From a virus (Duplodnaviria > Heunggongvirae > Uroviricota > Caudoviricetes), in IMG/VR virus record IMGVR_UViG_2778261246_000004, positions 1 to 44,468 of that record: a stretch of 44,468 nucleotides of DNA; one strand, 5' to 3'. The position numbers and the translations under genes were made by a program. Under the pieces are notes generated by a model. That model was not told the origin of the DNA and made no database searches. It saw only the letters and a list, made by a program, of their open reading frames with translations. Below, piece by piece: positions 5,067 to 43,897 of this stretch; the first letter of the stretch is position 1, and every line of letters starts with the position of its first letter.

Positions 5067-5535
5067 AGTATTTCAGCTCCAGTGTGAACGTTTTGTTCTT
5101 CGGCGCACCGCCGGGAAGAAAGGACGTGGTGTTATCTGAATAGGCAGTTGCCACGAAATACCCCATCACATCACCTGTGCTCGAGACCAGAAGATGCGGG
5201 GCCGGATTGTCATCCACCATCTGAACCAGTGTATCAAGAGCGTCCATTCCCACACCGTCACGAAATCCTGCATGCGCCATACCTTCAAGGGTTATTGTTC
5301 TGGCCCCCTTGCCGGTATACTGCAGCAGGTCGTTTTTTCCGATAAGCTGTTGTTCATCCCATCGCCATTCCATCGTGCGCTTCATGGCGTTATAAGCAGC
5401 AGTATCAATACTGAATTCAAACTCACCAAACGACAGCATGACGCGGGAGGCGACATCCGTTAATGATCCCACCGCGTCCCATGCTTCACGCTCAAGCCGG
5501 TTTACGCCCCAGCCCAGCAAATCCACCATATTCAC
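5041..5535 (-). CDS. Tail protein U-like (P2 gpU family)
   Basis: 164-aa ORF directly after the tape measure gene with ATGA overlap; matches P2 T-U-D order. Confidence 0.55.
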   Translation of the reverse strand: MNMVDLLGWGVNRLEREAWDAVGSLTDVASRVMLSFGEFEFSIDTAAYNAMKRTMEWRWDEQQLIGKNDLLQYTGKGARTITLEGMAHAGFRDGVGMDALDTLVQMVDDNPAPHLLVSSTGDVMGYFVATAYSDNTTSFLPGGAPKNKTFTLELKYYGEKLADY

Positions 5536-7193
5536 CCCCAGAATGCATCACCATCAGTCATGCGGGAACGCTGACCAAAATTAATATCTCCCAGATTTTT
5601 CGTTACCCTGTCTGCCAGTTGTCCGGCATCCTCGCCGGGCTTCTGAGTGATGTTAAATTCCGCCCGTATCTGATATGTGGGTTTTACTTCCACCTGGCTG
5701 ATACTGCCAGAGGTATCTTTCAGTGCCGAGAGGCGATCCTGGTTTTCCGGCTCCTGCCCTGCAGCAGGGAGTACGCCATACTCTGACAGACCATTGCGGA
5801 TTGCCTCTTCCCATCCCTTAAAGTCGGGAGTATCTTCTGGCCCCAGCAAAGGGTCGAGAAATGCATCAAACTTTTTATTGTCGTGATTCCAGGGGAGATA
5901 ACCGCGGGTGTCTTTATAGGCCTGTACAACCTGTTTCGTCAGGTCCGGATTTTTCCTGATAAGTTCATCAAACCATTCACCCTGACCGTTTTTCTGCGCC
6001 ACCGCTCTTGCCAGCTCCGGCGACCCCATTTTTGCCAGATATTCCAGCACCTCTCGCCGGTCCTCTCGCGGATCATCCGCCAGCCCCCACTCAATGGCTT
6101 TTTGTGTAATTCCGCCCAATACTTTTCCGAAATTCCACATCCAGGCAGCCATCCTGATCAACGTCGGCAAAGCGACGTCATTTATAAATTTCTGAATTTT
6201 TTCCAGTCCACCATACTTAAACCAGGCCGCAAGGTCATCCGTCACTCGTTGAATATGGGGGGAAAGCTGCTTACCCAGCTTTCCACTGATATCATCAATG
6301 GAAGAATTCAGAACATTGCGGAGATTCGACAGCGCCGCATGTCCCTGTACTGCGCCATCTACCCCTTCTTTTGTTACCAGGTTATAACGTTTCTGCTCAC
6401 TGATAAGCTCACCGAAGGTTTTTCCTGACAGACGCATCCAGGTCAGAATTTTATTGGCCTCACCACCAAACAATGCATCTGCCATCCCGGCAGCCACCTG
6501 TTCATCTTTCACCTCCAGCAACCGATCAAAAATAAATTCAACCTGCTCCTGGTTGTTTTTTCCGGCCATCACCCCGGCTTTCAGTCCCAGTTTGCCAAAA
6601 ACCTCCTGAATGGCCCCTTTATCAGTGGCACCATTATCATCGTCAAAAACCTTGTTCCGGTACTCCTCAAACAGATCACCGATGTTTTCACCGTTCAGCC
6701 CCATCAGTCGGGCCAGAGAATCCCATGCCGCATAGGTTTCATAATCCACCCCATAACTGCGGGCTATCCCTGCCCGCTCTGCCGTCTCCGTATTCCGGTT
6801 AAGCACAGCAGTAGTGCCCGCCGCCAGCGTCAGGCCCGCCCCCGCAGAAAGCCCAAAACCGGTTTTAAGGACCGTCCCCGCCCGCCCTTTCCAGCGTTCC
6901 AGGCGTTCCGCACGAGCCAGTTTACGGTTAAATTTGTCCTGCTCTCCGGTGGCATCATGAATTTTTTTACCCAGCTTTTCATACTGCTTTCGCAGATCAG
7001 TAATATCCTGTCCAGCCAGTACGCCAGCCTGAATTTTTCGTTTCAGTACATCCTGCTGGCGTGTCAGGCGAGCCACTTCCTGCGTTGCTCCTGATAATCC
7101 GTGCTTCAGTCCATCTACCGATTTTTTCCACGACGGATCTATCGAGCCGCCGATCCTGATATTCGCTTTAAGGTTATCGCCAACCGTTGCCAT
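5532..7193 (-). CDS. Tail tape measure protein
   Basis: 553-aa ORF downstream of the tail chaperone frameshift gene; Ala/Gly/Leu-rich with predicted coiled segments; overlapped by the E' extension. Confidence 0.7.
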   Translation of the reverse strand: MATVGDNLKANIRIGGSIDPSWKKSVDGLKHGLSGATQEVARLTRQQDVLKRKIQAGVLAGQDITDLRKQYEKLGKKIHDATGEQDKFNRKLARAERLERWKGRAGTVLKTGFGLSAGAGLTLAAGTTAVLNRNTETAERAGIARSYGVDYETYAAWDSLARLMGLNGENIGDLFEEYRNKVFDDDNGATDKGAIQEVFGKLGLKAGVMAGKNNQEQVEFIFDRLLEVKDEQVAAGMADALFGGEANKILTWMRLSGKTFGELISEQKRYNLVTKEGVDGAVQGHAALSNLRNVLNSSIDDISGKLGKQLSPHIQRVTDDLAAWFKYGGLEKIQKFINDVALPTLIRMAAWMWNFGKVLGGITQKAIEWGLADDPREDRREVLEYLAKMGSPELARAVAQKNGQGEWFDELIRKNPDLTKQVVQAYKDTRGYLPWNHDNKKFDAFLDPLLGPEDTPDFKGWEEAIRNGLSEYGVLPAAGQEPENQDRLSALKDTSGSISQVEVKPTYQIRAEFNITQKPGEDAGQLADRVTKNLGDINFGQRSRMTDGDAFWG

Positions 7194-7673: not shown

Positions 7674-8192
7674 TTAAACCCGGATGATTTTTTTCAGATC
7701 AGACAGAACATTAACGCCGTTAATACGGCGCACAAATTCCTCCGGAATAATGCAGATGGTTTCCACACCGTCGACAGCCTGACGGTAATAACTCAGTGAC
7801 ATTTCCACCGTCACCGAAGCCTCTGCCTGTGATGTCGCCGGGCGCGCATCCGGCGTGATACTGGTGATCATCCCCTGCAGTGTCTCCACCTGCCCGCTGG
7901 TCGCATTTCCCACCTGGTAAGCCTGGCGGACAACAATCTCCGGCGAATAAAGCCCGGCCTGCAATCCCAGCAGCGTAAGCATGGCAACATCATAACCATA
8001 AATCTTAAACGAACAGGTCAGCGCTTCCATGCCGTCATCCACTGCCACCGGTGCATCCATTGCGCCGGTTTTGATATCCACTGTCGTGATATTAATGGCA
8101 GGCGGCGTGTATTCATGCGCACCCTGAAGGCGGATCCCGCCAGGAAGAAATAACGCCCATGCGCGCAACAGTTTTTTTTCACCCGTCATCAT
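7674..8192 (-). CDS. Tail tube protein (P2 FII-like)
   Basis: 172-aa ORF directly downstream of sheath with ATGA overlap; same length as P2 FII. Confidence 0.75.
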   Translation of the reverse strand: MMTGEKKLLRAWALFLPGGIRLQGAHEYTPPAINITTVDIKTGAMDAPVAVDDGMEALTCSFKIYGYDVAMLTLLGLQAGLYSPEIVVRQAYQVGNATSGQVETLQGMITSITPDARPATSQAEASVTVEMSLSYYRQAVDGVETICIIPEEFVRRINGVNVLSDLKKIIRV

Positions 8193-9664
8193 ACCGTCAG
8201 TTCCTCCAGCGCCAGTTTATTGTTAATCATTGCCCGCAGTGTCAGGCGCTCCAGTGGTGACTTCGGCCCAAAGTCATAATCGATATACAACTGCCCTGCC
8301 GCCAGGGTTTCTGCTGTATTCAGTTCATCATTCAGCCAGGCGCTGCCACCGTGGATCGCACCCAGATTTTTAAGCTGACGCATATAGGCATTAATGCTGC
8401 CAAGAATGTCGTCTGCCACATCCCGATCAAGCGGGCGATCGACATAAGGCAACATGGCCTCCTGGATACTGTCCTCAATCACATCTGCAGTGCGACGTAC
8501 CGGTTCAAAGCGCCACTGACTGTGGGATGTGCACAGACGGTTACCCCAGTGTTTAAAACCGTCATGGCGAATAATGGTGGAGATATTTTCCATGTTCAGC
8601 AGGTTTGCCGTGCAGTTCTGCTCCCCGAGAATAAACGTATCCACCTGCTCCAGACCGGTGATATTCATCACGTCCTGGTTTGATTTGGACCACCACCACC
8701 CTTTTTCGTAATCAATACGGGCACGCAGCCCGGCAGCACGAGCCGAATATGGACGAAATATCGTTTGCCCGCTGTCATCCGTCACTGACACGCGCGGACG
8801 CAGCAGCTCCACACGCCCACCAAATGACGCGCGCCGCTGAACCACATCCTGCGGCGTTGCCATTGAAGGCGAGTCAATATAGGCCACAGCCCGCAGCTTC
8901 ACGGCATACGTTTCCAGCGCCTTTGCCACGCCATCATCCTCACTGTACCCCGTGGCAATGAGGATGCGCGGTTGATAGCCTGTGACGCCCTTACTTTCTG
9001 TCAGCGCCTCCATGGCCTGAATCACCGCCGCACGCTGTTCGGCCTCTTTCGCCTTTGTTTTACTTTCTGCGCGCACCACAATCACCAGCGCACCAGTCTG
9101 GTCAAAAATATCACGCAGGGCCGGGTATAATGTTCCGGCTGTGCCCAGTTTCCCCGCCTGAGTAATGGCCCCTGCCACCACCACCGGTGTGTTGACCGGG
9201 AACGCCTCATCTTCCCCGCCGGATAACGTCAGGCTGAATGGCGACACCACTTTATTTTCAGCGCCTCCTGCATTCAGGGTGCTGGCAGCCGCCGTCACAG
9301 GCGAATCCCCCAGCGCATTCACCACTTCAGTCACACGATCCACCGTGGCGTTAACCTGGCTGTGTTCGTCCGTCCCCAGTGTTATCGTCAGGGTCGTACC
9401 TTTCAGCGAGGCCACTGTCTGCGCGTTTTGTTCCGTGGCAGCCACGGCAACAACCGAAATCTTATTACCGACCCGACCTTCCTGTTTCGCCGTGAAATCC
9501 AGCGCCGTTCCCAGCAGCCATGAGCCGGCAGTGCCGGAAGCGCACACACCACCAGAGGCGTCCGGCGCTGTCCCCACCAGGCCAATCACTGCCGTGGAGA
9601 TGGTCTGCACGGCAACCGTGCCTGTCGTCAGTTCAATGGTTTCAACACCATGTAATCCGGACAT
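8189..9664 (-). CDS. Contractile tail sheath protein (P2 FI-like)
   Basis: 491-aa ORF; size, position upstream of tube gene and overall sequence character match myovirus sheath proteins. Confidence 0.8.
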   Translation of the reverse strand: MSGLHGVETIELTTGTVAVQTISTAVIGLVGTAPDASGGVCASGTAGSWLLGTALDFTAKQEGRVGNKISVVAVAATEQNAQTVASLKGTTLTITLGTDEHSQVNATVDRVTEVVNALGDSPVTAAASTLNAGGAENKVVSPFSLTLSGGEDEAFPVNTPVVVAGAITQAGKLGTAGTLYPALRDIFDQTGALVIVVRAESKTKAKEAEQRAAVIQAMEALTESKGVTGYQPRILIATGYSEDDGVAKALETYAVKLRAVAYIDSPSMATPQDVVQRRASFGGRVELLRPRVSVTDDSGQTIFRPYSARAAGLRARIDYEKGWWWSKSNQDVMNITGLEQVDTFILGEQNCTANLLNMENISTIIRHDGFKHWGNRLCTSHSQWRFEPVRRTADVIEDSIQEAMLPYVDRPLDRDVADDILGSINAYMRQLKNLGAIHGGSAWLNDELNTAETLAAGQLYIDYDFGPKSPLERLTLRAMINNKLALEELTV

Positions 9665-14684: not shown

Positions 14685-15403
14685 TCCAGCCCCTTAAATA
14701 CCCGGAATTTCAGTTCATGCTCAAAATTTTTCAGGATCAGTGCTTCCGCATCCGGAAAAACAAAATCCTCTATACGGTTCAGCATGGCTTCATAAATATC
14801 AATTTCCGCTTCACGCACCCTCCGTCGTCCGGATGCCTGTCGGATCAGTATCGTTTTCCTTTTTGATATACGTCCGTTACGATTTTCCGCTTCGAACTGG
14901 TTGATAAAGGCATCATCCGTTGACCAGGTGGTGACAGGCAGGGATTCCCCGGCAGGTTTAAAACGGATCTCCCGTGCCTTCCTCCGGTGGGAAGCTGGTG
15001 CAAAACGCCCCCGCTCATCGCGCAACTGATGGCGTTCGCCGCGTCGTCCCCCACTGATGCGTCCGCGCAGATCGCGTACTTTGATGGCGTTCAGACCGAA
15101 CCATACCTTCGCCTCATCAAACTCATCACCGTTACGACGAATGATAAAATTATGCAGAACACGCTTTTTGATCATTTTCTGACTGCGTGGGGCAACCTGT
15201 TTTTTAAACTCTGCCATAGCCTTCATCCGCAGTGCAGACGCGGCTCTTTTCAGCGCCACGCCCCAGGCTTTACGGATCTGACTTTTTGACCCACCCAGTT
15301 TAGCGATAATTTTCAGCACCTCATCTTCATCAATATCGACAACGAGGTTTCGTGCCAGCCGTCGCTGCCGGGCACTGCTTCGTTCATGCTCTCTGACTGC
15401 CAT
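14681..15403 (-). CDS. Hypothetical virion protein (possible tail completion or head-tail connector)
   Basis: ORF 14681-15463; start likely ATG at 15403 (MAVREHER), overlapping the FII-like gene end; basic protein. Confidence 0.4.
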   Translation of the reverse strand: MAVREHERSSARQRRLARNLVVDIDEDEVLKIIAKLGGSKSQIRKAWGVALKRAASALRMKAMAEFKKQVAPRSQKMIKKRVLHNFIIRRNGDEFDEAKVWFGLNAIKVRDLRGRISGGRRGERHQLRDERGRFAPASHRRKAREIRFKPAGESLPVTTWSTDDAFINQFEAENRNGRISKRKTILIRQASGRRRVREAEIDIYEAMLNRIEDFVFPDAEALILKNFEHELKFRVFKGLE

Positions 15404-15791
15404 AACGTTTACTCGGTCGTTCCGGTGCAGCAGGTGTATTTCTCCCGGGCTCTCCACGCGCAAGGGTGATGGTAATCACCCCCTGACCCGCAGCGCCTGA
15501 CTCATCCCAGCCGGGATCGACTACCTGATAGGGTTCGCCGTGGATCATGACCCTGTCATATTTTTTCAGACCGGCGGCCCATGCGCTCCGGGTAAATAAC
15601 ACGGGCGCAGTATCACGAATTTCGCCGCTGCCAGTGTTCATCCCGGTGTTATCTGCCGGGGCATCAAAAACGGCACGGATTTTTCTTTCCGTGCCGCCCG
15701 GATATATGCTGATTTCCGTCCCCATCGTATCCAGGATGATGTCATCCGCATCACTCATGGCCTGATCGAACAGATTATCGAACATCATCAC
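15384..15791 (-). CDS. Head-tail joining protein, lambda FII-like
   Basis: 135-aa ORF; N-terminus M..FDNLFD.A...AD..I...MGT matches lambda FII by memory. Confidence 0.7.
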   Translation of the reverse strand: MMMFDNLFDQAMSDADDIILDTMGTEISIYPGGTERKIRAVFDAPADNTGMNTGSGEIRDTAPVLFTRSAWAAGLKKYDRVMIHGEPYQVVDPGWDESGAAGQGVITITLARGEPGRNTPAAPERPSKRYGSQRA

Positions 15792-27201: not shown

Positions 27202-27354
27202 TTATTCAGATTTACGCAGTAAAGGCCGGAGCACGACCAGCGCCATCGCCACCAGCACACCATCTGCCAGCACCGACATCAGCCGTCCGGTGAAATCCAC
27301 CACCACTACCAGAAACAGCAGGATGGCAGCCAGCACAAGGTGCGCACTTTTCAC
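27202..27354 (-). CDS. Small hydrophobic ORF (50 aa, GTG start overlapping the upstream stop)
   Basis: cctGTGAaa overlap with the TerB-like gene stop, GGAG 8 nt upstream; VKSAHLVLAAILLFLVVVVDFTG...; not in ORF track (short). Confidence 0.3.
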   Translation of the reverse strand: MKSAHLVLAAILLFLVVVVDFTGRLMSVLADGVLVAMALVVLRPLLRKSE

Positions 27355-27776
27355 AGGTACTGCTCCAGCGGCAACTGCAGCGCCTGAGCAATTTTCTTGA
27401 GCTGTGCTTCTTCATCCGGACCAATGCCATCCTGGTCAGCAATATCAAGACACAGGCACAGCACATCAACCGCTTCGGCGGTTCCTGCCACATCAGCCAG
27501 TTCACGCAAAGCCTGAGCATTCGCACTACGAGGTGACGCTTCATAACGGGCGCGGATATTTGCACTCATTTGTGCAATCTCACCCGAGAACGGCGCAAAA
27601 GCAGGAAGTGCTGCAATGGTTTTCTCCAGCACAGCGATTTCTTTCGCATCACAGGTGCCGTCGGCGAATGCTATGGAATACGCGCCCCAGACGGTCGCCT
27701 CCACTGCGTCGCGGTTCTCCATCTTCTTCACTTCGGTAATGGCCTTGCGGGTTTTCTTTTTGAAAATACCAAACAT
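27351..27776 (-). CDS. TerB-like / DUF533-like protein
   Basis: 141-aa ORF with AAGGAA RBS; resemblance to TerB-family proteins is from memory only. Confidence 0.4.
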   Translation of the reverse strand: MFGIFKKKTRKAITEVKKMENRDAVEATVWGAYSIAFADGTCDAKEIAVLEKTIAALPAFAPFSGEIAQMSANIRARYEASPRSANAQALRELADVAGTAEAVDVLCLCLDIADQDGIGPDEEAQLKKIAQALQLPLEQYL

Positions 27777-28146: not shown

Positions 28147-28228
28147 TGGACCGTCACCGGGGACTCGAACCCCGCACCACAAAACAACAATACGTGTTAT
28201 GCACTCTTACCCGATGAGTTAGTGACGG
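28147..28228 (-). tRNA. tRNA-like element A (atypical; anticodon not assignable by eye)
   Basis: 7-bp acceptor stem CCGTCAC/GTGACGG, U8, A14, G18G19, canonical T-arm CGGGG-TTCGAGT-CCCCG and 3' CCA, but no clean anticodon arm; 82 nt. Confidence 0.35.
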
Positions 28229-28282
28229 TTTTTTGTTCTGTGGGAATCCAGCCTGACGACAGAATTACTGGAACACCTTGCA

Positions 28283-28318
28283 AAAAAAGCCAGCCACCAG
28301 AGACTGGCTGGCAAATTA
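28283..28318 (-). terminator. Rho-independent terminator-like hairpin
   Basis: Minus-strand RNA GCCAGCCA-loop-UGGCUGGC followed by U7. Confidence 0.45.
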
Positions 28319-28487
28319 CAAAGTTTAAATGATTCATCATACAATCGTCGTTACAGGGGAATCCTGCGGTGCAGCAAGATACAGAAATGTAAGCAAGCTA
28401 ACAATAAGCAAGAACAGCATCTTCGGAATTAGTTATATTTTTAACGATACAATGCTTATTTAGCGTACAACTCTGCCATTTACCGAA

Positions 28488-28513
28488 AAAAAACCGCCTG
28501 TTAAGGCGGTGGT
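28488..28513 (-). terminator. Rho-independent terminator-like hairpin
   Basis: Minus-strand RNA CCGCC-UUAACA-GGCGG followed by U8. Confidence 0.45.
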
Positions 28514-28881
28514 CAAATCAGTAAGTGCTGAAGAGTATTATTATAATATAGGTGAGGTGTCGGGTGCCTCCCGAAATACCTGACATTCCATCAGATACTG
28601 TAGTTTCCCCGCTAAACAACCACTTAAACCACCCCCGCACATGGAGCCCACCTCATTTTGTGATGTTAACAACATCGGGATAGTGCATAATCAGCCCCTG
28701 CATGGAAATATCAAAAAAAATCCCACCAATAATGCACTATTCCGATAGCATCAAAAAACACAGCACCGAAATCATAACTGGTCTCCGTTATAATTCGGGA
28801 GCGCGATAAGGGATATACGAGACCTTTTCCCGCGAGAAAAAAAACGCCAGTGCTGAAAAACCTGTACCTCATTTGTTTTGC

Positions 28882-28956
<75 letters not shown>

Positions 28957-28959
28957 ATA

Positions 28960-29035
<76 letters not shown>

Positions 29036-29037
29036 AC

Positions 29038-29114
29038 TGGACCGCCACCGGGGACTCGAACCTCGCACACTCAACTTAAAGGGTTGACGCTCTTTCCTGA
29101 TGAGCTAGTGGCGG
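29038..29114 (-). tRNA. tRNA-like element B (divergent; anticodon loop CCUUUAA, possibly UUU)
   Basis: Acceptor CCGCCAC/GTGGCGG, U8, A14, GG in D-loop, perfect 5-bp anticodon stem TCAAC/GTTGA, T-loop TTCGAGT, CCA; position 33 is C not U. Confidence 0.45.
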
Positions 29115-29115
29115 T

Positions 29116-29191
29116 TGGTGGCCCTTGCTGGATTTGAACCAGCGACCTGGCGATTATGAGTCGCTCGCTCTCACCACTGAGCTAAAGGGCC
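29116..29191 (-). tRNA. tRNA with anticodon CAU, closest to tRNA-Ile2 (lysidine type, ileX/ileZ-like)
   Basis: GGCCCTTTAGCTCAGTGGT.AGAGC...GACTCATAATCGC...GGTTCAAATCCAGCAAGGGCCACCA; near-identical to E. coli ileX by memory. Confidence 0.8.
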
Positions 29192-33166: not shown

Positions 33167-33424
33167 ATGCGTACAACCCAACAATTCAGCATTACATTAA
33201 CTAACGAAATGGCTGACATGGTGCGCGCCCGTGTGGCTTCCGGTGCCTATGCTTCAGAAAGCGAGGTCATTCGTGAAGGACTTCGCGCACTGAATGAGCG
33301 CGATAAAGCAATCGAAGCGTGGTTAACGCATTCAGCCGCTCCCTCTCTTGATTCTATCCGCGAAAATCCAAACAACGGACGCTCCATTTCACAGGTTCGC
33401 GCCGCGATTCGATCCGGGAAGTAA
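33167..33424 (+). CDS. parD: Type II antitoxin, ParD family (ribbon-helix-helix)
   Basis: 85-aa product from ATG 33167 (GAGG RBS); FSITL..EMA..V...V.SG.Y.S.SEVIREGLR.L motif; 6-nt spacing to toxin gene. Confidence 0.7.
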   Translation: MRTTQQFSITLTNEMADMVRARVASGAYASESEVIREGLRALNERDKAIEAWLTHSAAPSLDSIRENPNNGRSISQVRAAIRSGK

Positions 33425-33429
33425 TCTGC

Positions 33430-33729
33430 ATGACATATGAAGTCATCATTACTCCTGAGGCCGAACAACAAATAATCAACCTGCACAGATATATAACGGA
33501 GAAAGCAGGGAACGTCATTGCTGACAATTATGCCAATGCGCTTCTTGATTATCTTGATGGGTTTTCTACATTCCCGCATCGGGGCAATAAACGCGATGAT
33601 ATTCGCCAGGGGATGCGGGTAACTCATTTCCGCCACAGAACGATTATTGCTTTTGCCGTTGATGGCAGAAAAGTCTTTATTGTCGGTATCTATCATGGTG
33701 GGCAAAGTTATGAAACCGATTTCTTATAA
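33430..33729 (+). CDS. parE: Type II toxin, ParE/RelE family
   Basis: 99-aa ORF directly downstream of parD; typical size and pairing. Confidence 0.7.
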   Translation: MTYEVIITPEAEQQIINLHRYITEKAGNVIADNYANALLDYLDGFSTFPHRGNKRDDIRQGMRVTHFRHRTIIAFAVDGRKVFIVGIYHGGQSYETDFL

Positions 33730-33934
33730 ACTTTTACCCACATCATTCCGGTGTTAGAATAAACCGTCCGCCTCCTCTCTTACTGGCGGATTCGTAGGCT
33801 ATATAAATCAAAGATCCCGGCTCATGTTTGTGTCGGGATCTTTTTTTCGGCGATTTATCCCCAGCGGCAAATCGAATACACCACCAGCGCCACCGCCATC
33901 GCAATTCCTACCGTGGTGAATGCCTCAGGCCAGG

Positions 33935-35356: not shown

Positions 35357-35779
35357 TCACAGCACCACCTCCTGAAATTTCCCCTGATAAAACGACAATA
35401 TGCGCTGCATAACTTCACTCTTCCGGCACTCGCGACAGATTATGTTCTGACGCCTGTCGTAGCGACGTATTTCTCCGTCAGGTAATGACCAGATAAGGTC
35501 CGGATCAACCGCAGATGGTTTCTTCAGCTTTGCCCTTGAGAGCTTTTTACGGGCATTTTGCCAGTCCTTACGCGCCTGTTCAGACGGGAATAACCCGTAA
35601 CCAGAGTTGTATACATCGCCGCTGGCAACCAGCTCTCTTGCGAGAACGCTCATCAGATATCTTGTCGCACCTGTCTTGACTTCCAGTTGCCGTAACGTCT
35701 CACGCCCACTCTGGCGTACGAGTTCAACAACCTGTCCTTTAATTTTTTCCCGCTCTTCTTGTGTAAAAACTTTTGCCAC
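35357..35779 (-). CDS. Hypothetical phage early protein
   Basis: 140-aa ORF in an operon with replication and nin genes; basic, with Cys pair C.EC. Confidence 0.4.
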   Translation of the reverse strand: MAKVFTQEEREKIKGQVVELVRQSGRETLRQLEVKTGATRYLMSVLARELVASGDVYNSGYGLFPSEQARKDWQNARKKLSRAKLKKPSAVDPDLIWSLPDGEIRRYDRRQNIICRECRKSEVMQRILSFYQGKFQEVVL

Positions 35780-36961: not shown

Positions 36962-37387
36962 TCAATGTACTGCCACAGCATTTCCTGCCGGGCCACCACG
37001 GTTCATCTGATTGAAACCGGCGATTGCCACTGCGACAAAATCATCAGCGTCTCTCACCAGTCGCTCCCGCGTCTCCACCAGCTCCCGAAAATAAGCTGAA
37101 CTGTGGCTGCGCATTCTGGCCACCAGCAAAGGTGGCATTGCCTTTTCGATCGCTGGTAACAACGCCTGAATTTTTTCAACTGCATCAGGGGTGTCTTTCT
37201 CTACCCAGCGGAAAATTTTCTGGGTATTGCGAGCCAGGGCTTCCGGATGGCTGTCGTCATACAGTTCTGGGAACGTCATACCCAGTTCAAAATAAGCCCT
37301 GGTTATTTCAGCTGCCGGAACTTTTTCACCGTCCGGATGCGCCCAGGCATTCATCGCCATGCGGATGTGTTCATGCTTGATTTTCAT
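36962..37387 (-). CDS. CII-like / YdaT-like early regulator
   Basis: 141-aa ORF immediately downstream of the Cro-like gene; resemblance to Rac YdaT from memory. Confidence 0.45.
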   Translation of the reverse strand: MKIKHEHIRMAMNAWAHPDGEKVPAAEITRAYFELGMTFPELYDDSHPEALARNTQKIFRWVEKDTPDAVEKIQALLPAIEKAMPPLLVARMRSHSSAYFRELVETRERLVRDADDFVAVAIAGFNQMNRGGPAGNAVAVH

Positions 37388-37652
37388 GAATCAAGCTCCT
37401 AGAAAGTGGTTGTGTTAACGTTTTGGTATCTTCCAGCTCGGGCCAAATATTCATCCAATCAAAAGGCCTTAGTTGCTGACGTGTAACTTCACCATTACTG
37501 GCTCGCTCAATAAGGACACATAACGATGCCCCTAACACTTGACCTTTACTCAATGCCTTTCTTAGATAACCGATGCTGGTACCACACTCGCATGCAAACA
37601 TACGCTGTTCATCTGACGAAAGAGAATTGAGAAATATTCTTAATTCTTCCAT
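37371..37652 (-). CDS. Cro-like HTH regulator (YdaS/DicC analogue)
   Basis: 93-aa ORF divergent from the repressor gene; HTH-like segment EQRMFACECGTSIGYLRKAL. Confidence 0.55.
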   Translation of the reverse strand: MEELRIFLNSLSSDEQRMFACECGTSIGYLRKALSKGQVLGASLCVLIERASNGEVTRQQLRPFDWMNIWPELEDTKTLTQPLSRSLIHENQA

Positions 37653-37679: not shown

Positions 37680-37735
37680 AATACCCACAGGTAAACAAAA
37701 GTCAATACCCACAGGTTGTTTACCTTGCGGTAATC
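37680..37735. promoter_or_regulatory. Immunity-region operators: three copies of a TACC-N4-5-GGTA half-palindrome between divergent Cro-like and repressor genes
   Basis: ATACCCACAGGTA (x2) and TTACCTTGCGGTAA seen directly. Confidence 0.5.
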
Positions 37736-37752
37736 GCATCTATTATTTACCT

Positions 37753-38172
37753 ATGGACAAATATGAATTTAGACGACAGCAACTCATCAAAATTCGTGAT
37801 GAGAAATGCGATGGTAAAGCGGTTAACGTGGCCAGAAAGATCGGGCGCGAGCCTTCTTATGTATCAAGAATGTTGTACCCAGAGGGGAAAAAGGGAAAAA
37901 AACGGATCGCTGATGATATGGTGGAGATTATCGAAGAGTCCTTTGGGTTACCCCGGGGATGGATGGATGGTATCGTTTCATCATCAACGAACACAGCCTC
38001 CAGTTATGAAACAAGGGTTCTAACGCCACGACAACGTATTTTTTTAGATCTCTTAGACGAACTGCCAGAAAGTGAAGCGGATAACTTATTAAAAACTCTT
38101 GAAGAGAAAAAACAGTATTACAATATGATCTACGAAGAAATCCGTAAAAAGAAAGCACAAAACGCATCATAG
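37753..38172 (+). CDS. Prophage repressor, DicA/RacR-like HTH protein
   Basis: 139 aa; HTH VNVARKIGREPSYVSRML; C-terminus L.P...FLDLLDELPESEAD resembles DicA (memory). Confidence 0.65.
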   Translation: MDKYEFRRQQLIKIRDEKCDGKAVNVARKIGREPSYVSRMLYPEGKKGKKRIADDMVEIIEESFGLPRGWMDGIVSSSTNTASSYETRVLTPRQRIFLDLLDELPESEADNLLKTLEEKKQYYNMIYEEIRKKKAQNAS

Positions 38173-38212: not shown

Positions 38213-38253
38213 GTTACCCACGGGTATTTACTTTTTAAATACCTATGGGTATC
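38213..38253. promoter_or_regulatory. Two further palindromic operators (TTACCCACGGGTA, ATACCTATGGGTAT) between the repressor gene and ydfA, overlapping a candidate promoter
   Basis: Seen directly; same TACC...GGTA motif as the upstream set. Confidence 0.5.
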
Positions 38254-38437
38254 CTTCTTTTCATACCAACCCACCCCGCCCCACAGAATGCAGGGCAATA
38301 CTTCGAGTTACCAGGCAGTGGTCAGGGGTTAAGTAGCCAGCCCGAGGCGTAAGAACATGACGGCAGGGTTCAACTTTAATAACTATGCAGCAGGTTTTTG
38401 TTCCGCTACCCCGGCGTTAAGGGGAAATGAGGTCAGC

Positions 38438-38593
38438 ATGGATACTATCGATCTTGGCAACAACGAATCTCTGGTGTACGGCGTGTTTCCCAACCAGGAC
38501 GGCACATTCACCGCGATGACGTATACCAAAAGCAAAACGTTTAAAACCGAAAATGGTGCCCGTCGCTGGCTGGAAAGAAACTCAGGTGAGTGA
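38438..38593 (+). CDS. ydfA: YdfA-like small protein (51 aa)
   Basis: ATG 38438 with GAGG RBS; same size and position as Qin ydfA. Confidence 0.5.
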   Translation: MDTIDLGNNESLVYGVFPNQDGTFTAMTYTKSKTFKTENGARRWLERNSGE

Positions 38594-38594
38594 T

Positions 38595-38723
38595 ATGGAT
38601 TTCGACACAATCATGGAAAAGGCTTACGAAGAATACTTCGAAGGTCTTGCCGAAGGCGAAGAAGCTCTCAGCTTCAACGAATTTAAACAGGCGCTTTCCA
38701 GTTCGGCAAAATCTAACGGCTGA
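38595..38723 (+). CDS. ydfB: YdfB-like small protein (42 aa)
   Basis: ATG 1 nt after ydfA stop; MDFDTIMEKAYEEYFEGLAEGEEALSFNEFKQALSSSAKSNG; not in ORF track (short). Confidence 0.5.
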   Translation: MDFDTIMEKAYEEYFEGLAEGEEALSFNEFKQALSSSAKSNG

Positions 38724-38752
38724 TAAGCGAAGCAGCACCGCGAGGAATCAGT

Positions 38753-38971
38753 ATGCAGAAACGAGAACCCGTCATCATCGCGCCAGACTATACCGATGAT
38801 GAACTTTATGAGTGGATGCGCCAGAAAATTAATGCAGCGCAGGATCTGAAATGGGCCAATGAAGCCAGGGCTAAGCAGGCTGAAAATCTGTCCGCTCTGG
38901 AGCAGGATATCACCAGGCTGGAAAAAGCAGCGGCATTAAGCATTGCCAGAATGATTACATACCCGCGTTAA
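38753..38971 (+). CDS. ydfC: YdfC-like small protein (72 aa)
   Basis: 72-aa ORF with GAGGAA RBS, preceding DicF. Confidence 0.5.
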   Translation: MQKREPVIIAPDYTDDELYEWMRQKINAAQDLKWANEARAKQAENLSALEQDITRLEKAAALSIARMITYPR

Positions 38972-39311
38972 TAGCTAACCAACGAAGCTAAGGTTGGTAA
39001 TTAAGGAGTTCTCCACGGGTGAGGTGGAGTGCGTGCGCCGGACACGGGTGAGCATCCGGCACTGACAGTTTACTGAAAGGATATTTCCATGAAAAGTCAG
39101 ACCATAACGCGAAAGCGCACGGCGAGGTAGCTGGTTCATAGATAGCCTGTCGTTAAATTTTCGTCGACCGTGCGCTTCCGGTTGTGGCACTCCGCGAAAT
39201 GGCGCGGCGGTAAGTATGGCGGGGTTATTCCTTCCCCGTTGAGGACACCGGGTTGTCAGGTTGACCATACGCTTAAGTGACAACCCCGCTGCAACGCCCT
39301 CTGTTATCAAT

Positions 39312-39364
39312 TTTCTGGTGACGTTTGGCGGTATCAGTTTTACTCCGTGACTGCTCTGCCGCCC
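39312..39364 (+). ncRNA. dicF: DicF small regulatory RNA
   Basis: UUUCUGGUGACGUUUGGCGGUAUCAGUUUUACUCCGUGACUGCUCUGCCGCCC plus U5 matches remembered E. coli DicF; lies between ydfC-like and dicB as in Qin. Confidence 0.8.
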
Positions 39365-39538
39365 TTTTTAAAGTGAATTTTGTGATGCGGTGAATGCGGC
39401 TAAGCGCACGCGGAACAGTTAAAACCAAAAACAGTGTTATGGGTGGATTCTCTGTATCCGGCGTTAATTGTTAACTGGTTAACGTCACCTGGAGGCACCA
39501 GGCACCGCATCACAAAATTCATTGTTGAGGACGCGATA

Positions 39539-39727
39539 ATGGAAACGTTATTACCAAACGTTAATACGTCTGAAGGTTGTTTTGAAATTGGTGTCACTAT
39601 CAGTAACCCTGTATTTACTGAAGATGCCATTAACAAGAGAAAACACGAACGGGAGTTACTAAATAAAATATGCATTCTTTCAATGCTGGCCCGTTTACGT
39701 CCGATACAAAAAGGATGCTGGCAATGA
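39539..39727 (+). CDS. dicB: Cell division inhibitor DicB
   Basis: 62-aa product M.TLLPNVNTSEGCFEIGVTISNPVFTEDAINKRK.ERELLNKICI.SMLARLR matches DicB; RBS GAGG. Confidence 0.85.
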   Translation: METLLPNVNTSEGCFEIGVTISNPVFTEDAINKRKHERELLNKICILSMLARLRPIQKGCWQ

Positions 39728-39915
39728 ATACAGCATTTGCACTTGTTCTGACAGTTTTTCTTGTTTCCGGAGAGCCAGTTGATATTGCAGTCAGTGTTCA
39801 CAGAACAATGCAGGAATGTATGGCAGCAGCAACCGAACAGAAAATTCCCGGTAACTGTTACCCGGTCGATAAAGTTATTCACCAGGATAGTAACGAAATC
39901 CCGGCAGGTCTTTAA
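39724..39915 (+). CDS. ydfD: YdfD-like small membrane protein
   Basis: ATGA overlap with dicB stop; MNTAFALVLTVFLVSGEPVDIAVSVHRTMQECM.AATEQKIPGNCYPVDKVIHQD..EIPAGL matches Qin YdfD. Confidence 0.7.
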   Translation: MNTAFALVLTVFLVSGEPVDIAVSVHRTMQECMAAATEQKIPGNCYPVDKVIHQDSNEIPAGL

Positions 39916-40007
39916 AACAGTTCCGTAATAAACATCCGATTTCATTCTTATATGCCAGCAATGGCAGGGATTTGTTCACCATTAAATCTGTAATGAGGTA
40001 AAACAAA

Positions 40008-42479
40008 ATGAGTAAAGTCTTTATTTGCGCCGCCATTCCGGACGAACAGGCAATAAAGGAAGAAGGTGCAGTCGCTGTAGCTACTGCCATTGAAGCCGGT
40101 GATGAACGTCGCGCCCGCGCAAAATTTCACTGGCAATTCCTGGAACATTATCCGGCTGCTCAGGACTGCGCTTATAAATTTCTTGTCTGCGAGGATAAAC
40201 CCGGTATACCCCGCCCTGCCCTCGATTCCTGGGATGCTGAATATATGCAGGAAAACCGCTGGGATGAGGAGTCTGCTTCCTTTGTCCCGGTTGAGACTGA
40301 ATCAGATCCGATGAACGTCACTTTTGACAAGCTGGCCCCTGAAGTACAGAACGCTGTCATGGTTAAGTTCGACACATGTGAAAACATCACTGTTGATATG
40401 GTGATTAGCGCACAGGAATTGTTGCAGGAAGACATGGCAACATTCGACGGCCATATCGTTGAAGCGTTGATGAAAATGCCAGAAGTAAACGCCATGTATC
40501 CGGAGCTTAAGCTGCATGCCATCGGGTGGGTTAAGCATAAATGTAAGCCTGGTGCCAAATGGCCCGAAATTCAGGCAGAGATGTGCATCTGGAAAAAACG
40601 TCGCGAAGGTGAACGCAAGGAAACCGGAAAATACACGTCTGTTGTTGATCTCGCCCGCGCCAGACCCAATCAACAGAACACTGAAAATTCAACAGGAAAA
40701 ATCAACCCGGTCATTGCTGCCACTCATCGCGAATACAAGCAGACATGGAAAACACTGGATGACGAACTGGCCTACGCTCTCTGGCCTGGTGATGTGGATG
40801 CCGGAAACATTGACGGCAGCATCCATCGCTGGGCAAAAAATGAAGTTATCGACAACGACCGCGAAGACTGGAAGCGTATCTCGGCATCAATGCGCAAACA
40901 GCCTGATGCCCTTCGCTACGACCGCCAGACTATTTTTGGCCTTGTCCGTGAACGTCCGATCGACATTCACAAAGACCCTGTGGCACTGAACAAATACATT
41001 ACTGAATACCTGACTACAAAGGGCGTGTTTGAAGATGAAGGAAGAAATCAGAGCGCAACTGATACTCTCTCGTCGCCAGTACCAGAAACTGATGCAGTGG
41101 AAACGGCAATTCCGGACAACGAAAAAACCGAATGCAAAGTGGAAGTCGAACCATCTGTAGAGCGTGAGGGGCCGTTCTACTTCCTCTTCACCGACAAGAA
41201 TGGCGAAAAATACGGTCGCGCAAACAAACTTTCTGGTCTGGATAAGGCGCTGGCTGCCGGGGCTACTGAAATCACGAAAGAAGAATATTTCGCCCGCAAA
41301 AACGGTACATACTCAGGTTCACAACAAAATACTGGTGCATCTGACACGACCGCACAACCAGAGCCGGTAAAAGTTACCGCTGACGAAGTAAACAAAATTA
41401 TGCAGGCAGCCAATATCAGCCAGCCTGACGCCGATGAACTGCTTGCAGTATCACGTGGTGAATTTGTTGCAGGGATTAGCGATCCGAATGATCCGAAATG
41501 GGTGAAGGGGATTGAAACCCGCGATTCTGTGAACCAGAACCAGCAAGAAACGGAACAGAACGACCAGAAAGCGGAACAAAACAGCCCAAATGCGTTACAA
41601 AACGAGCCAGAAACGAAACAATCCGAACCAGTAGCGCAACAGGAACCGGAAAAAGTCTGCACCGCCTGCGGTCAGAGCGGTGGCGGCAACTGCCCTGATT
41701 GTGGCGCGGTGATGGGCGACGCAACATACCAGGAAACATTCGATGAAGAGAATCAGGTTGAAGTTCAGGAAAATGATCCGGAGGAAATGGAAGGCGCTGA
41801 ACATCCACACAAGGAGAACCCTGGCGGCAATCAGCATCACGCCAGCGATAATAAAACTGGCGAGGCGACAGATCCCTTAATTAAGGTGAATGGTCATTAT
41901 AAGCTCACATCCACCAGCAGAGCGGGGATTCATCTGATGATCGACCTTGAAACAATGGGAAAAAATCCCGATGCCCCGATTATCTCAATAGGCGCAATAT
42001 TTTTCGATCCACAAACCGGAGAGATGGGGCCGGAATTTAGCAAGACCATCGATCTGGATACTGCTGGCGGAGTCATTGATCGTGACGTCATTAAATGGTG
42101 GCTGAAGCAATCACGTGAAGCGCAGTCTGCCATTATGACCGATGAAATCCCGTTAGATGATGCACTACTGCAATTGCGGGAATTTATCGACGAAAACTCC
42201 GGTGAATTTTTTGTTCAGGTCTGGGGTAATGGGGCCAACTTCGACAACGTGATTTTACGCCGTTCATACGAACGACAGGGTATCCCCTGCCCGTGGCGCT
42301 ACTGCAACGATCGCGATGTACGCACAATCGTTGAGCTGGGGAAAGCCATAGACTTCGATGCCAGAACTGCTATCCCATTCGAAGGTGAGCGCCATAATGC
42401 ACTTGATGACGCTCGTTACCAGGCAAAATACGTTTCAGCTATCTGGCAAAAACTGATCCCGAGTCAGGCTGATTTTTAA
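40008..42479 (+). CDS. Large early-region protein with C-terminal DEDDh 3'-5' exonuclease domain, zinc-ribbon and acidic low-complexity linker
   Basis: 823 aa; C-terminal motifs IDLETMG, WGNGANFD, HNALDDARYQ (DnaQ-like); CTACG...CPDCG zinc ribbon; Gln/Glu-rich linker. Confidence 0.55.
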   Translation: MSKVFICAAIPDEQAIKEEGAVAVATAIEAGDERRARAKFHWQFLEHYPAAQDCAYKFLVCEDKPGIPRPALDSWDAEYMQENRWDEESASFVPVETESDPMNVTFDKLAPEVQNAVMVKFDTCENITVDMVISAQELLQEDMATFDGHIVEALMKMPEVNAMYPELKLHAIGWVKHKCKPGAKWPEIQAEMCIWKKRREGERKETGKYTSVVDLARARPNQQNTENSTGKINPVIAATHREYKQTWKTLDDELAYALWPGDVDAGNIDGSIHRWAKNEVIDNDREDWKRISASMRKQPDALRYDRQTIFGLVRERPIDIHKDPVALNKYITEYLTTKGVFEDEGRNQSATDTLSSPVPETDAVETAIPDNEKTECKVEVEPSVEREGPFYFLFTDKNGEKYGRANKLSGLDKALAAGATEITKEEYFARKNGTYSGSQQNTGASDTTAQPEPVKVTADEVNKIMQAANISQPDADELLAVSRGEFVAGISDPNDPKWVKGIETRDSVNQNQQETEQNDQKAEQNSPNALQNEPETKQSEPVAQQEPEKVCTACGQSGGGNCPDCGAVMGDATYQETFDEENQVEVQENDPEEMEGAEHPHKENPGGNQHHASDNKTGEATDPLIKVNGHYKLTSTSRAGIHLMIDLETMGKNPDAPIISIGAIFFDPQTGEMGPEFSKTIDLDTAGGVIDRDVIKWWLKQSREAQSAIMTDEIPLDDALLQLREFIDENSGEFFVQVWGNGANFDNVILRRSYERQGIPCPWRYCNDRDVRTIVELGKAIDFDARTAIPFEGERHNALDDARYQAKYVSAIWQKLIPSQADF

Positions 42480-42540
42480 TGTTCAACTGTCGCCAGTTGT
42501 CGTTGGTATTCTGCAACTGGCGCGTTCCGGAGTGATAGCC

Positions 42541-42810
42541 ATGAGCGAACAGTACCTGATAACGCTCGATGAGTGGAAGCCAAAACGGTTCAGTCTCCCA
42601 ATAACAAACACTACCCTGGTGAAATACGGAAAACTAGGATACATCGTTCCAAGACCACAAAAAATTCGTGGGCGTTGGCTGATAGATCGCCGGGCAGTAT
42701 TTGTTGGACCTGGTGAAACGGGAATTGCGCCGGAAATTCATACTGGCGATGATGATGCACTGAAGGAGATTTTAACTCATGTCACCGAGGCCACGAAAAA
42801 ACAGCACTGA
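42541..42810 (+). CDS. xis: Excisionase (lambda Xis-like)
   Basis: YLITLDEW..KR........V.....G..VP.P.K..GRWLIDRRAV parallels lambda Xis; directly upstream of and overlapping int. Confidence 0.6.
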   Translation: MSEQYLITLDEWKPKRFSLPITNTTLVKYGKLGYIVPRPQKIRGRWLIDRRAVFVGPGETGIAPEIHTGDDDALKEILTHVTEATKKQH

Positions 42811-43897
42811 CGTAACCGGTCTTTACGAAAAGTTTGATCGCAGAACTGGCAGGGTTTACTACCAGTATAAAAATCCTGTGACTGGAAAATTTCACGGACT
42901 CGGAACAGACAAAGGTAAGGCAGAAAAAATCGCTTCCACAGCCAATCAGCGAATAGCTGCAGCAGAAGCTGAATATTTCATGCGCAAAATTGATGAAAGT
43001 CCGTCAGCAACAAAACGTCGGGGTATCAGATTAAAGGCATGGGTTGATCGATATCTGAAAATACAGGACGCGCGACTGAAAAATGGAGATATTGCAGCTA
43101 CAACTCACAAAGAAAAAGCCCGAATGGCTGCATACCTGGTTTCCCGTCTGGGAAACCACCCATTGAAAGAACTGGAAGTAAGAGACTTTGCATTAATACT
43201 GGATGAGTGGCTGGATAAAGACATGGTCAGCACAGCGAGAGTAAATCGTGGATTATGGGTTGATATTTATAAAGAAGCACAGCATGCAGGGGAAGTTCCT
43301 CCTGGATGGAATCCTCCGGAGGCTACCCGTAAACCGATCCCTAAAGTAACCAGAGCCAGACTCACCCTGGAGGACTGGCAAAAAATTTACAATTCAACAC
43401 CAGAAAAACACTTTATCCGTAACGCAATGCTTCTTGCGATTGTTACTGGTCAGCGCCGTGATGACATTTGCCACATGCGTTTTTCAGATGTGTGGAACGA
43501 ACACTTGCATATCACCCAGGGAAAAACCGGAATGCGTCTGGCGTTACCGCTTACGCTACGCTGTGATGCCATTGGAATATCGCTAAAAGAAGTGATTGAT
43601 GGATGCAAGGACAGAATATTGAGTCCATACCTGATTCATAGTCGGCACCAGAAACAACCAAAACCAATGAGTAAAGATAACCTGAGCGACTACTTTGCTA
43701 AAGCGCGGGATCTGGCAGGAATAACTCCACCAGCAGGAAAAACACCACCAACATTTCATGAACAACGCTCCCTGTCAGAACGACTGTACCGCGCACAGGG
43801 TATCGATACAAAAACATTACTGGGACATAAAGTCCAAGCAACCACCGATCGTTATAACGATACTCGTGGTCAGGAATGGGTTAAATTGGTTGTTTGA
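42779..43897 (+). CDS. int: Tyrosine site-specific integrase (lambda Int family)
   Basis: 372 aa; C-terminal catalytic box TFHEQRSLS.RLY...LLGHK...TTDRYNDTRG (H-x-x-R and Tyr) parallels lambda Int. Confidence 0.85.
   Translation: MSPRPRKNSTDVTGLYEKFDRRTGRVYYQYKNPVTGKFHGLGTDKGKAEKIASTANQRIAAAEAEYFMRKIDESPSATKRRGIRLKAWVDRYLKIQDARLKNGDIAATTHKEKARMAAYLVSRLGNHPLKELEVRDFALILDEWLDKDMVSTARVNRGLWVDIYKEAQHAGEVPPGWNPPEATRKPIPKVTRARLTLEDWQKIYNSTPEKHFIRNAMLLAIVTGQRRDDICHMRFSDVWNEHLHITQGKTGMRLALPLTLRCDAIGISLKEVIDGCKDRILSPYLIHSRHQKQPKPMSKDNLSDYFAKARDLAGITPPAGKTPPTFHEQRSLSERLYRAQGIDTKTLLGHKVQATTDRYNDTRGQEWVKLVV

Follow-up and report, generated by a model that had tools for sequence, protein, structure and literature searches.

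An intact dicBF operon as the probable proximal part of the early-left operon of a lambdoid Escherichia coli prophage

The window analysed here is a whole 44,468-nucleotide stretch of a tailed-phage record (IMG/VR IMGVR_UViG_2778261246_000004; Caudoviricetes). It carries ydfA, ydfB, ydfC, the small RNA gene dicF, dicB and ydfD, all six intact and on one strand, with the order and spacing seen in E. coli K-12 prophage Qin, as in a Qin-type operon (Table 1). Positions 38400-40774 aligned with K-12 Qin in a single blastn segment of ~2.4 kb at 96.1% identity, a resemblance far beyond chance. This block and the Rfam, Pfam and NCBIfam matches of its parts bear out the DicF, DicB, YdfD and YdfABC identities and the Qin order that a first-pass annotation had proposed.

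Table 1. Features of the dicBF module and its flanks (positions in the window; aa, amino acids)
Feature	Position	Strand	Description
Cro/YdaS-like regulator gene	37371-37652	-	93 aa; phrog_35 'transcriptional repressor', 4.8e-23; DicC/Cro analogue
OR-like operator cluster	37682-37732		TACCCACAGGTA (37682), TACCCACAGGTT (37706, one mismatch), TACCTTGCGGTA (37721)
Prophage repressor gene	37753-38172	+	139 aa; phrog_5736 'transcriptional regulator', 4.4e-70
OL/PL-like control region	38215-38255	+	Operators TACCCACGGGTA (38215-38226) and TACCTATGGGTA (38240-38251) bracketing an inferred promoter
Conserved 5' leader	38262-38437	+	Homology with Tritos and CV839-06 starts here, whatever the immunity type
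ydfA	38438-38593	+	51 aa, DUF1391; 51/51 aa identical to K-12; PF07151, 98.5 bits; phrog_751
ydfB	38595-38723	+	42 aa; 41/42 aa identical to K-12; phrog_2061
ydfC	38753-38971	+	72 aa; 71/72 aa identical to K-12; phrog_1744
Untranslated dicF precursor region	38972-39311	+	Predicted hairpin at ~39110-39179 (fold, z = -2.86)
dicF sRNA	39312-39364	+	53/53 nt identical to K-12 b1574; Rfam RF00039
Structured dicF-dicB spacer	39365-39531	+	Predicted fold and conservation
dicB	39539-39727	+	62 aa; 56/62 aa identical to K-12; PF05358, NF049927
ydfD	39724-39915	+	63 aa, DUF1482; 59/63 aa identical to K-12; PF07358, 88.1 bits; phrog_1092
Exonuclease gene	40008-42479	+	823 aa; PF16473, 223 bits; partial match to NCBIfam exoVIII
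Excisionase gene (xis)	42532-42810	+	phrog_629
Integrase gene (int)	42779-43897	+	phrog_7244/phrog_1

DicB matched its Pfam family with 127.4 bits (cut-off 27) over residues 1-62 of 62 and its NCBIfam model with 132.7 bits (cut-off 100), which makes it a full-length member. The six residues that differ from K-12 are mostly C-terminal; the dicB allele of the window, present in 21 of 90 IMG/VR loci, is surpassed in frequency by only one other. YdfD, a small protein for which lysis on overexpression has been reported, scores far above the Pfam cut-off of 25 bits and has a hydrophobic N-terminus, in keeping with DUF1482 membership; its start codon and the stop of dicB share an ATGA at 39724-39727. 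YdfA likewise clears its Pfam cut-off. Searches of the PDB with the small proteins returned nothing useful, and DicB has no solved structure. In K-12, DicB brings MinC to the septum via ZipA, dissolving the Z ring; ManYZ-dependent injection of DNA by lambda-like phages is also stopped by the DicB-MinC pair; and YdfD binds IspG and causes a division-dependent lysis that DicB counteracts (PMC10448788, PMC5069750, PMC6832061, PMC8835842). By analogy, the DicB of the window would be a MinC-dependent division inhibitor, with MinC binding and the Z-ring block carried over from the K-12 protein.

DicF aligned with positions 1-52 of 52 of its Rfam model with 76.7 bits (gathering score 48; E = 2.5e-15), so that the sequence comparison and Rfam scan earlier proposed as checks on dicF both came out in its favour; a lack of homology to DicF or DicB, named as grounds for rejecting the assignment, was seen for neither. 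RNAfold left the first 15 nucleotides unpaired and closed a Rho-independent terminator stem after them, in keeping with the single-stranded 5' and central pairing region of a DicF RNA, and a TTTTT U-tail stands directly 3' of the RNA at 39365-39369. The range of 39312-39369 given in the first-pass annotation corresponds to DicF plus this tail. The identical K-12 RNA represses ftsZ translation by Hfq-dependent antisense pairing (PMC5069750), and the DicF of the window is expected to do the same, on the strength of that experiment. The RNAduplex energy of DicF with the K-12 ftsZ leader was -38.5 kcal/mol, which is weakly discriminating since shuffled DicF gave -30.1 +/- 3.9 and 16 of 500 shuffles did as well.

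The sequences around dicF are also compatible with the processing described in K-12, where DicF is excised from the transcript by RNases III and E, with a 53-nt form arising from the terminator, and acts with Hfq on the ftsZ, manX, xylR and pykA mRNAs (PMC10448788, PMC5069750, PMC6832061, PMC8835842). Predicted hairpins sit where the reported K-12 RNase III ends fall. The long hairpin in the precursor region fits the RNase III site that generates the 5' end of a 190-nt DicF species in K-12 (PMC10448788), its placement being estimated from lengths; the 3' end of a 72-nt DicF, also produced by RNase III (PMC5069750), would map to ~39383 in the window. The distance from the ydfC stop to dicF is 340 nt, most loci having 340 or 341 nt; counted from the first base of DicF, the dicB start lies 227 nt on, a spacing shared by 97 of 108 loci.

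The spacer between dicF and dicB is itself strongly structured. Its predicted minimum free energy is -72.3 kcal/mol (z = -6.19), none of 200 shuffles folding as well, and a closing helix of 28 bp joins 39365-39392 to 39503-39531, in which the U-tail of DicF pairs with the dicB Shine-Dalgarno sequence GAGGA (39527-39531). Across 43 distinct variants, 98.4% of cells keep the closing helix paired, with one compensatory pair. The covariation score of the spacer helix was not above that of shuffles, the sequences being too similar, and support for the helix thus comes from thermodynamics and conservation. The spacer resembles Rfam STnc100 (RF02076), a candidate sRNA of gammaproteobacteria, aligning over the whole model (positions 1-206) and sharing its closing helix, but its 39.1 bits (E = 3.5e-7 in a 401-nt search) fall short of the gathering score, 47, and by the Rfam criterion it is no member; it differs further in being an intra-operon dicB leader and not an independent gene. 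We tentatively suggest, at odds that favour the opposite, that the spacer is an RNase III-gated switch in which the helix hides the dicB Shine-Dalgarno sequence of read-through transcripts, and DicB and the translationally coupled YdfD need either the RNase III cut that makes the 3' end of the 72-nt DicF or co-transcriptional escape. The RNase III end is published; the Shine-Dalgarno occlusion and its role in a viable phage were not found in the published literature.

Upstream of the module, the repressor gene and the divergent cro-like gene form an immunity region whose layout mirrors that of dicA and dicC in K-12. The cro-like product matched the Pfam YdaS_toxin family weakly (25.8 bits, below the cut-off of 30), and its gene takes the position of K-12 dicC. 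The repressor has no S24 self-cleavage domain and resembles DicA over only its C-terminal ~50 aa (BLASTP, 33% over 46 aa); it scored 23.9 bits against the NCBIfam DicA model, for which the cut-off is 101, and is not DicA itself. Judged from its sequence and placement, it is a DicA/CI analogue of a different immunity type that occupies the same position as the DicA module. The exact palindrome TACC-N4-GGTA occurs four times in the window, against 0.26 expected, and none of 100 shuffles reached four; two copies precede and two follow the repressor gene, each at no more than 100 nt from its ends. The repressor gene thus stands between two clusters of predicted operators and faces a divergent cro, as in a PL-type arrangement. 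The inferred promoter has a -35 of TTTACT (38227-38232) and a -10 of TATCCT (38250-38255). With 8 of 12 consensus positions it fell under the threshold of the scan and was not called, and it aligns with the TTGACT-17 nt-TACCTT of the CV839-06 immunity type, where a palindrome likewise sits in the spacer. The restriction of TACC-N4-GGTA to the flanks of the repressor gene argues that the phage repressor holds the operon off and that the operon fires on derepression.

The leader that follows has only its last 38 nt in common with K-12. An in-frame upstream ATG at 38357 (ORF 38357-38593) would give a 78-aa YdfA, and Tritos annotates this 237-nt form; the longer form occurs in one leader type and is missing from the K-12 type, and indel variants exist. 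A promoter scan of the plus strand from 38256 to 39539 found no internal dicB promoter, and K-12 work likewise reports none (PMC10448788). Other regulators were sought in the window. No Rem homologue was found (tblastn of K-12 Rem, best E = 0.6) and the repressor is another than DicA, so the Rem/DicC/DicA control scheme does not apply; no antirepressor was recognised. Six loose matches to the LexA-box pattern CTG[TA]-N8-[TA]CAG were present; all lacked an AT-rich core, and no candidate antirepressor stood close to any of them. No arginine-rich ORF of the N-like antiterminator type lies between the repressor gene and ydfA, and YdfA, YdfB and YdfC lack the motif. Further downstream, an arginine-rich mini-ORF, MKSQTITRKRTAR (~39090), was considered as an N-like peptide and rejected because related loci do not conserve its ATG. 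An Rfam search of the leader gave no match; a put-like antitermination RNA may nevertheless act at the operon start.

Downstream of ydfD the same strand continues into recombination, excision and integration genes, again as in a PL-type operon. The exonuclease has a RecE-like central part and a C-terminal DEDDh/Rv2179c-like 3'-5' exonuclease domain, and its gene is of equal length in Tritos and CV839-06. Homology to K-12 stops at 40774, the position of IS2 in K-12; by this alignment the K-12 pseudogene ydfE is the IS2-truncated N-terminus of the 823-aa exonuclease. The xis-int order at the distal end of the early-left operon is that of CV839-06 and Tritos, and the window thus runs from the repressor over the operators and ydfABC-dicF-dicB-ydfD to exonuclease, xis and int. 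The succession of repressor, module, exonuclease, xis and int recurs in Tritos and in prophage CV839-06. Since xis and int follow on the same strand, phage excision would require read-through past the DicF terminator.

The rest of the window encodes small and large terminase, portal, protease/scaffold, decoration protein, major capsid protein and connectors, and a contractile-type tail with baseplate, sheath, tape measure and tail fibres; two holins, an endolysin, Q, replication genes, the repressor and cro are present as well. The prophage therefore looks complete by gene content, from terminase to int, as the claim of full head, tail and lysis genes had it; the att sites lie outside the window. 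Among complete E. coli genomes and phage records, none matched the window in full. The best coverage is 63-66% for the right half and 96% for the left half, in different strains, which marks the prophage as a mosaic.

Compared with the Qin operon of K-12 (ydfABC-dicF-dicB-ydfDE, b1571-b1577), the window has the same genes, order and spacing, the same ATGA overlap and an identical DicF. It differs upstream of 38400, where the repressor, the operators and the leader are all others and no Rem antirepressor homologue accompanies them, and downstream, where the exonuclease is full length and not IS2-truncated as ydfE is in K-12, followed by intact xis and int; head, tail and lysis genes are present in addition.

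Another close counterpart is Escherichia phage Tritos (OV696610; prophage 3 of AIEC LF82), which forms virions and plaques (PMC9928086). Tritos is 97.2% identical across the 1.7-kb module and likewise carries cro, a repressor, ydfABC, DicF (annotated in its record), dicB, ydfD, a 2472-nt exonuclease gene, xis and int. In contrast, its 'CI repressor' is only 39% identical to the repressor of the window, indicating a different immunity type; it is a siphovirus with lambda-like tail genes where the window has a contractile-tail module; and its integrase is not that of the window. The isolates vB_EcoS-689R5, vB_EcoM-606R7, PhiR42_1 and mEp460_ev081 are related to Tritos, and mEp460_ev081 has been discussed as a functional phage with dicB and dicF by Ragunathan et al. 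2023 (PMC10448788). The contrast between a defective K-12 prophage and an intact phage, put forward as the point of interest of this locus, is thus already documented by Tritos, with its annotated DicF, and by mEp460_ev081.

At ≥80% query coverage the module was found in about half of the complete E. coli genomes (2765 of 5426), often in several copies. Six phage records carry it, the plaque-forming Tritos among them, and at least 119 IMG/VR contigs contain the exact DicF sequence. Among at least 90 viral contigs DicF does not vary, and its spacing to dicB and ydfD stays the same. DicA-like, Tritos-like, window-like or LexA-family repressors precede the cassette in 92 IMG/VR loci, and homology among three immunity types starts at ~38262, directly 3' of the aligned -35 and -10 elements, which marks a mosaic boundary.

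We therefore consider it very likely that this canonical dicBF operon belongs to a lambdoid E. coli prophage and makes up the proximal part of its PL-type early-left operon, silenced by the repressor and firing on derepression. In the lysogen, the 139-aa repressor would bind the predicted operators and keep the operon silent; derepression or infection would yield a single polycistronic transcript, from which RNase III and RNase E would release DicF while read-through transcripts give DicB, steps established for the near-identical K-12 sequences. The net effect would be a passing block of host division and exclusion of competitor phages during lytic development, a functional counterpart of lambda Kil. 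Like lambda Kil and Rac KilR, the module encodes a small toxic inhibitor of Z-ring assembly in a repressor-controlled PL early-left operon expressed on derepression, and like Kil it has the immunity region on one side and the recombination, xis and int genes on the other. Unlike these, the dicBF products have no sequence relationship to Kil, which hits FtsZ through ZipA, whereas DicB works via MinC and ZipA and DicF via antisense pairing, so that an sRNA and a protein act jointly.

Of the two roles that the first-pass annotation left side by side, the architecture favours host takeover on derepression, in the manner of Kil, because the operator palindromes flank the PL-like promoter immediately before ydfA; a lysogen that is protected constitutively fits this layout less well. 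The list of genes expressed in a Tritos lysogen includes none from the dicBF operon, and DicA represses K-12 dicBp 22-fold, which together suggest that the operon is off in the lysogen. The cassette could instead serve in defence, as a moron-type module of lysogenic conversion that is expressed weakly, or in only some of the lysogens, and benefits mainly the lysogen, an unlikely but serious alternative; its retention would then be explained, with no greater probability, by DicB guarding against ManYZ-dependent phages and DicF retuning metabolism. Transient expression of K-12 dicBF does give ~100-fold, DicB-dependent lambda resistance (PMC6832061), and the module is kept in defective prophages as well as being widespread and often multicopy in the genomes surveyed. 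In K-12, DicF builds up in stationary phase and ~1% of cells derepress dicBp spontaneously (PMC10448788), so some expression in the lysogen is possible. Yet the scan found no promoter belonging to the cassette itself, predicted repressor palindromes stand upstream of it, the Tritos list speaks against expression, and sustained expression is toxic (PMC5069750). Nor did PADLOC place the proteins in a defence family: YdfB, YdfC, DicB and YdfD had no match, and YdfA had one to AbiEi at chance level (E = 0.0092).

That the operon is silent cargo, intact while contributing nothing to the prophage, for example because the terminator and the spacer helix stop DicB and YdfD or because the prophage is non-inducible, we regard as very improbable. 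It would agree with the failure to recognise an antiterminator or antirepressor in the window, with a dicB Shine-Dalgarno sequence buried in the predicted 28-bp helix, and with att sites beyond the window, viability not being readable from sequence. Against it stand the integrity of all six features, the conservation of DicF and of the dicB and ydfD spacing among the viral contigs, the same arrangement in a plaque-forming phage, and the read-through that excision would need.

The module is thus real but ordinary, a textbook copy of a known division-blocking phage cassette: the cassette and its components, their processing, the PL-like control and the occurrence in viable temperate phages have all been published or annotated in public records. 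Should the spacer switch prove true, it would put the sRNA arm and the protein arm of the division block in order during the lytic development of a live phage. The window also shows that K-12 ydfE and intQ are decayed remnants of the exonuclease-xis-int arm, and it offers a clean example of how the dicBF cassette moves as a unit behind exchangeable immunity modules.

The stretch 38438-39915, which the first-pass annotation had read as a Qin-type ydfABC-dicF-dicB-ydfD module, was confirmed in full, with all six features on the plus strand. Direct comparison found dicF identical to K-12 b1574, and an Rfam scan matched 39313-39364 to the full DicF model at 76.7 bits (gathering score, 48). DicB scored 132.7 bits against the NCBIfam DicB model (cut-off, 100) and differs from the K-12 protein at six residues; this allele ranks second commonest in IMG/VR (21/90). 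PHROG families exist for all five module proteins. A single blastn segment, 38400-40774, shares 96.1% identity with Qin and ends precisely at K-12's IS2 insertion in ydfE. The latter pseudogene (5079-5999 of the comparison sequence L001) is an N-terminal remnant of the 823-aa exonuclease downstream of the module, which has a RecE-like middle and a DEDDh/Rv2179c-like C-terminus and is intact in the window.

Features of the module and of the surrounding prophage
Feature	Position	Strand	Remarks
ydfA	38438-38593	+	51/51 aa identical to K-12; Pfam DUF1391, 98.5 bits
ydfB	38595-38723	+	41/42 aa identical to K-12
ydfC	38753-38971	+	71/72 aa identical to K-12
dicF	39312-39364	+	53 nt, identical to K-12 b1574
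dicB	39539-39727	+	56/62 aa identical to K-12; Pfam DicB, 127.4 bits
ydfD	39724-39915	+	59/63 aa identical to K-12; Pfam DUF1482, 88.1 bits
Cro/YdaS-like gene	37371-37652	divergent	upstream of module
Repressor gene	37753-38172		upstream of module; 139 aa; phrog_5736 match
CII/YdaT-like and replication initiator genes			upstream of module
Exonuclease	40008-42479	+	downstream of module; 823 aa
Excisionase and integrase genes		+	downstream of module
Head genes			lambda/21 type: terminase small and large subunits, portal, protease/scaffold, decoration, major capsid
Connector and tail genes			connectors, baseplate, sheath, tape measure, two tail-fibre sets
Sheath	8192-9664		in contractile-tail module with baseplate, two tail-fibre and chaperone sets
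Lysis and other genes			two holins, endolysin, Q, RusA-region genes, tRNA cluster
TerB-like 'tellurite resistance' protein gene	27351-27776		accessory
tRNA cluster	28147-29191	-	between lysis and Q regions; ARAGORN: Met-Lys-Thr-Gly
ParD/ParE-type toxin-antitoxin pair	about 33170-33730		inferred from 98.6% identity to annotated CV839-06 region
Ren-like exclusion protein gene	35357-35779		accessory

The prophage looks complete in its gene content, with the att sites falling outside the window. Its structural module (1-23517) is a hybrid, in which a lambda/21-like head with ~74% nucleotide identity to phage 21 is joined to a contractile-tail module. The tail part had no match among phage records at the megablast level, and at least 80% of the structural region is present in 63 complete E. 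coli genomes. Within the tRNA cluster, the Met-called gene is tRNA-Ile in a related record's annotation; an extra tRNA-Val (AAC) at 28147-28228 was called by ARAGORN alone and went unreported by Rfam at the gathering threshold.

The proposed contrast between the defective Qin of K-12 and a complete phage is by now documented. Balasubramanian et al. (2016) searched about 2,000 phage genomes without finding either DicB or DicF (PMC5069750), and the first-pass inference would have been new then; in 2023 the same laboratory described a functional phage, mEp460_ev081, carrying dicB, dicF, dicAC and rem (PMC10448788). The Escherichia phage Tritos, which produces virions and plaques (PMC9928086), has DicF, dicB and ydfD annotated in its GenBank record in the same order as in the window, and is among the six of sixty matching phage records that hold the full module. 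At a query cover of at least 80%, the module occurs in 2765 of 5426 complete E. coli genomes (median, two places per genome), and at least 119 IMG/VR contigs contain an exact DicF copy. The module is real, intact and correctly identified, and it is ordinary and already known.

The palindrome TACC-N4-GGTA is present in exactly four copies in 44.5 kb, against 0.26 expected, and none of the shuffles reached four. Two copies plus a one-mismatch copy (37706) lie within 37682-37732, between the cro-like and repressor genes; the other two, at 38215 and 38240 (to 38251), follow the repressor stop codon and precede ydfA. They are probably the OR- and OL-type operators of an immunity system that differs from that of DicA. 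The repressor resembles DicA only over its C-terminal ~50 residues and lacks an S24 self-cleavage domain. The copies at 38215 and 38240 bracket a weak sigma-70-like site, TTTACT-17 nt-TATCCT, which the promoter scan did not call; it aligns with TTGACT-17 nt-TACCTT of the prophage CV839-06, whose LexA-family repressor has a palindrome of its own in the same -35/-10 spacer. Neither a homologue of the Qin antirepressor Rem nor a convincing LexA box was found in the window, nor was an N-like antiterminator gene found to account for transcription past the DicF terminator.

Homology common to the window, Tritos and CV839-06 starts at ~38262, just 3' of the promoter-like site, and the sequence 5' of it is immunity-type-specific in all three. 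Among 92 IMG/VR loci with sufficient flanks, the repressor preceding the cassette is of at least three or four types, and the distance from the first base of DicF to the dicB start is 227 nt in 97 of 108 loci. The cassette is therefore a conserved unit whose expression would depend on the PL-like promoter and operator of the particular phage that carries it, in agreement with the K-12 model in which dicBp corresponds to PL and DicA to CI (PMC10448788). The 176-nt operon leader (38262-38437) is common to Tritos and CV839-06 but not K-12, and contains a further in-frame ATG (38357), which has a GAGG of its own and from which YdfA would extend to 78 aa; the Tritos record annotates this long form whereas PGAP annotates the short one. 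In many E. coli prophages, including CV839-06 and those of ETEC strains, ydfC is separated from the dicF precursor by a ~634-bp insertion that encodes two small hypothetical proteins and that the window lacks (junction 38991/38992, versus 15083-15718 of the comparison sequence L002).

A long hairpin forms at about 39110-39179 in the 340-nt spacer between ydfC and dicF, and the RNase III cut giving the 190-nt DicF species would be predicted to fall there. The dicF-dicB spacer (39365-39531) folds with a z of -6.19, and no shuffle folded equally well. Its 28-bp closing helix, in which the U-tail of the DicF terminator base-pairs with the Shine-Dalgarno of dicB (GAGGA, 39527-39531), is paired in 98.4% of cells across 43 distinct variants, including loci with another gene in place of dicB. 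Most changes are compatible with wobble pairing and one pair is compensatory; covariation statistics over the 43 variants are not significant. Rfam STnc100 matched the spacer at 39.1 bits, below its threshold of 47. The published 72-nt DicF species is made by RNase III, and its end would map to ~39383, inside the 5' arm of the helix. Gating of dicB translation by this conserved helix is possible, and would be a small addition to known facts.

In near-identical K-12 sequences, DicF represses ftsZ, manX, xylR and pykA (PMC5069750), and DicB acts with MinC to dissolve Z rings and to block the ManYZ-dependent entry of phage DNA (PMC6832061). YdfD, which binds IspG, causes dividing cells to lyse if neither DicB nor SulA halts division (PMC8835842). 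The operon would be silent in the lysogen and would fire on derepression; in support of this, no dicBF gene is listed as expressed in the LF82(Tritos) lysogen. Once derepressed it may impose a transient division block and exclude competing phages, and in this it would be a functional counterpart of lambda Kil.
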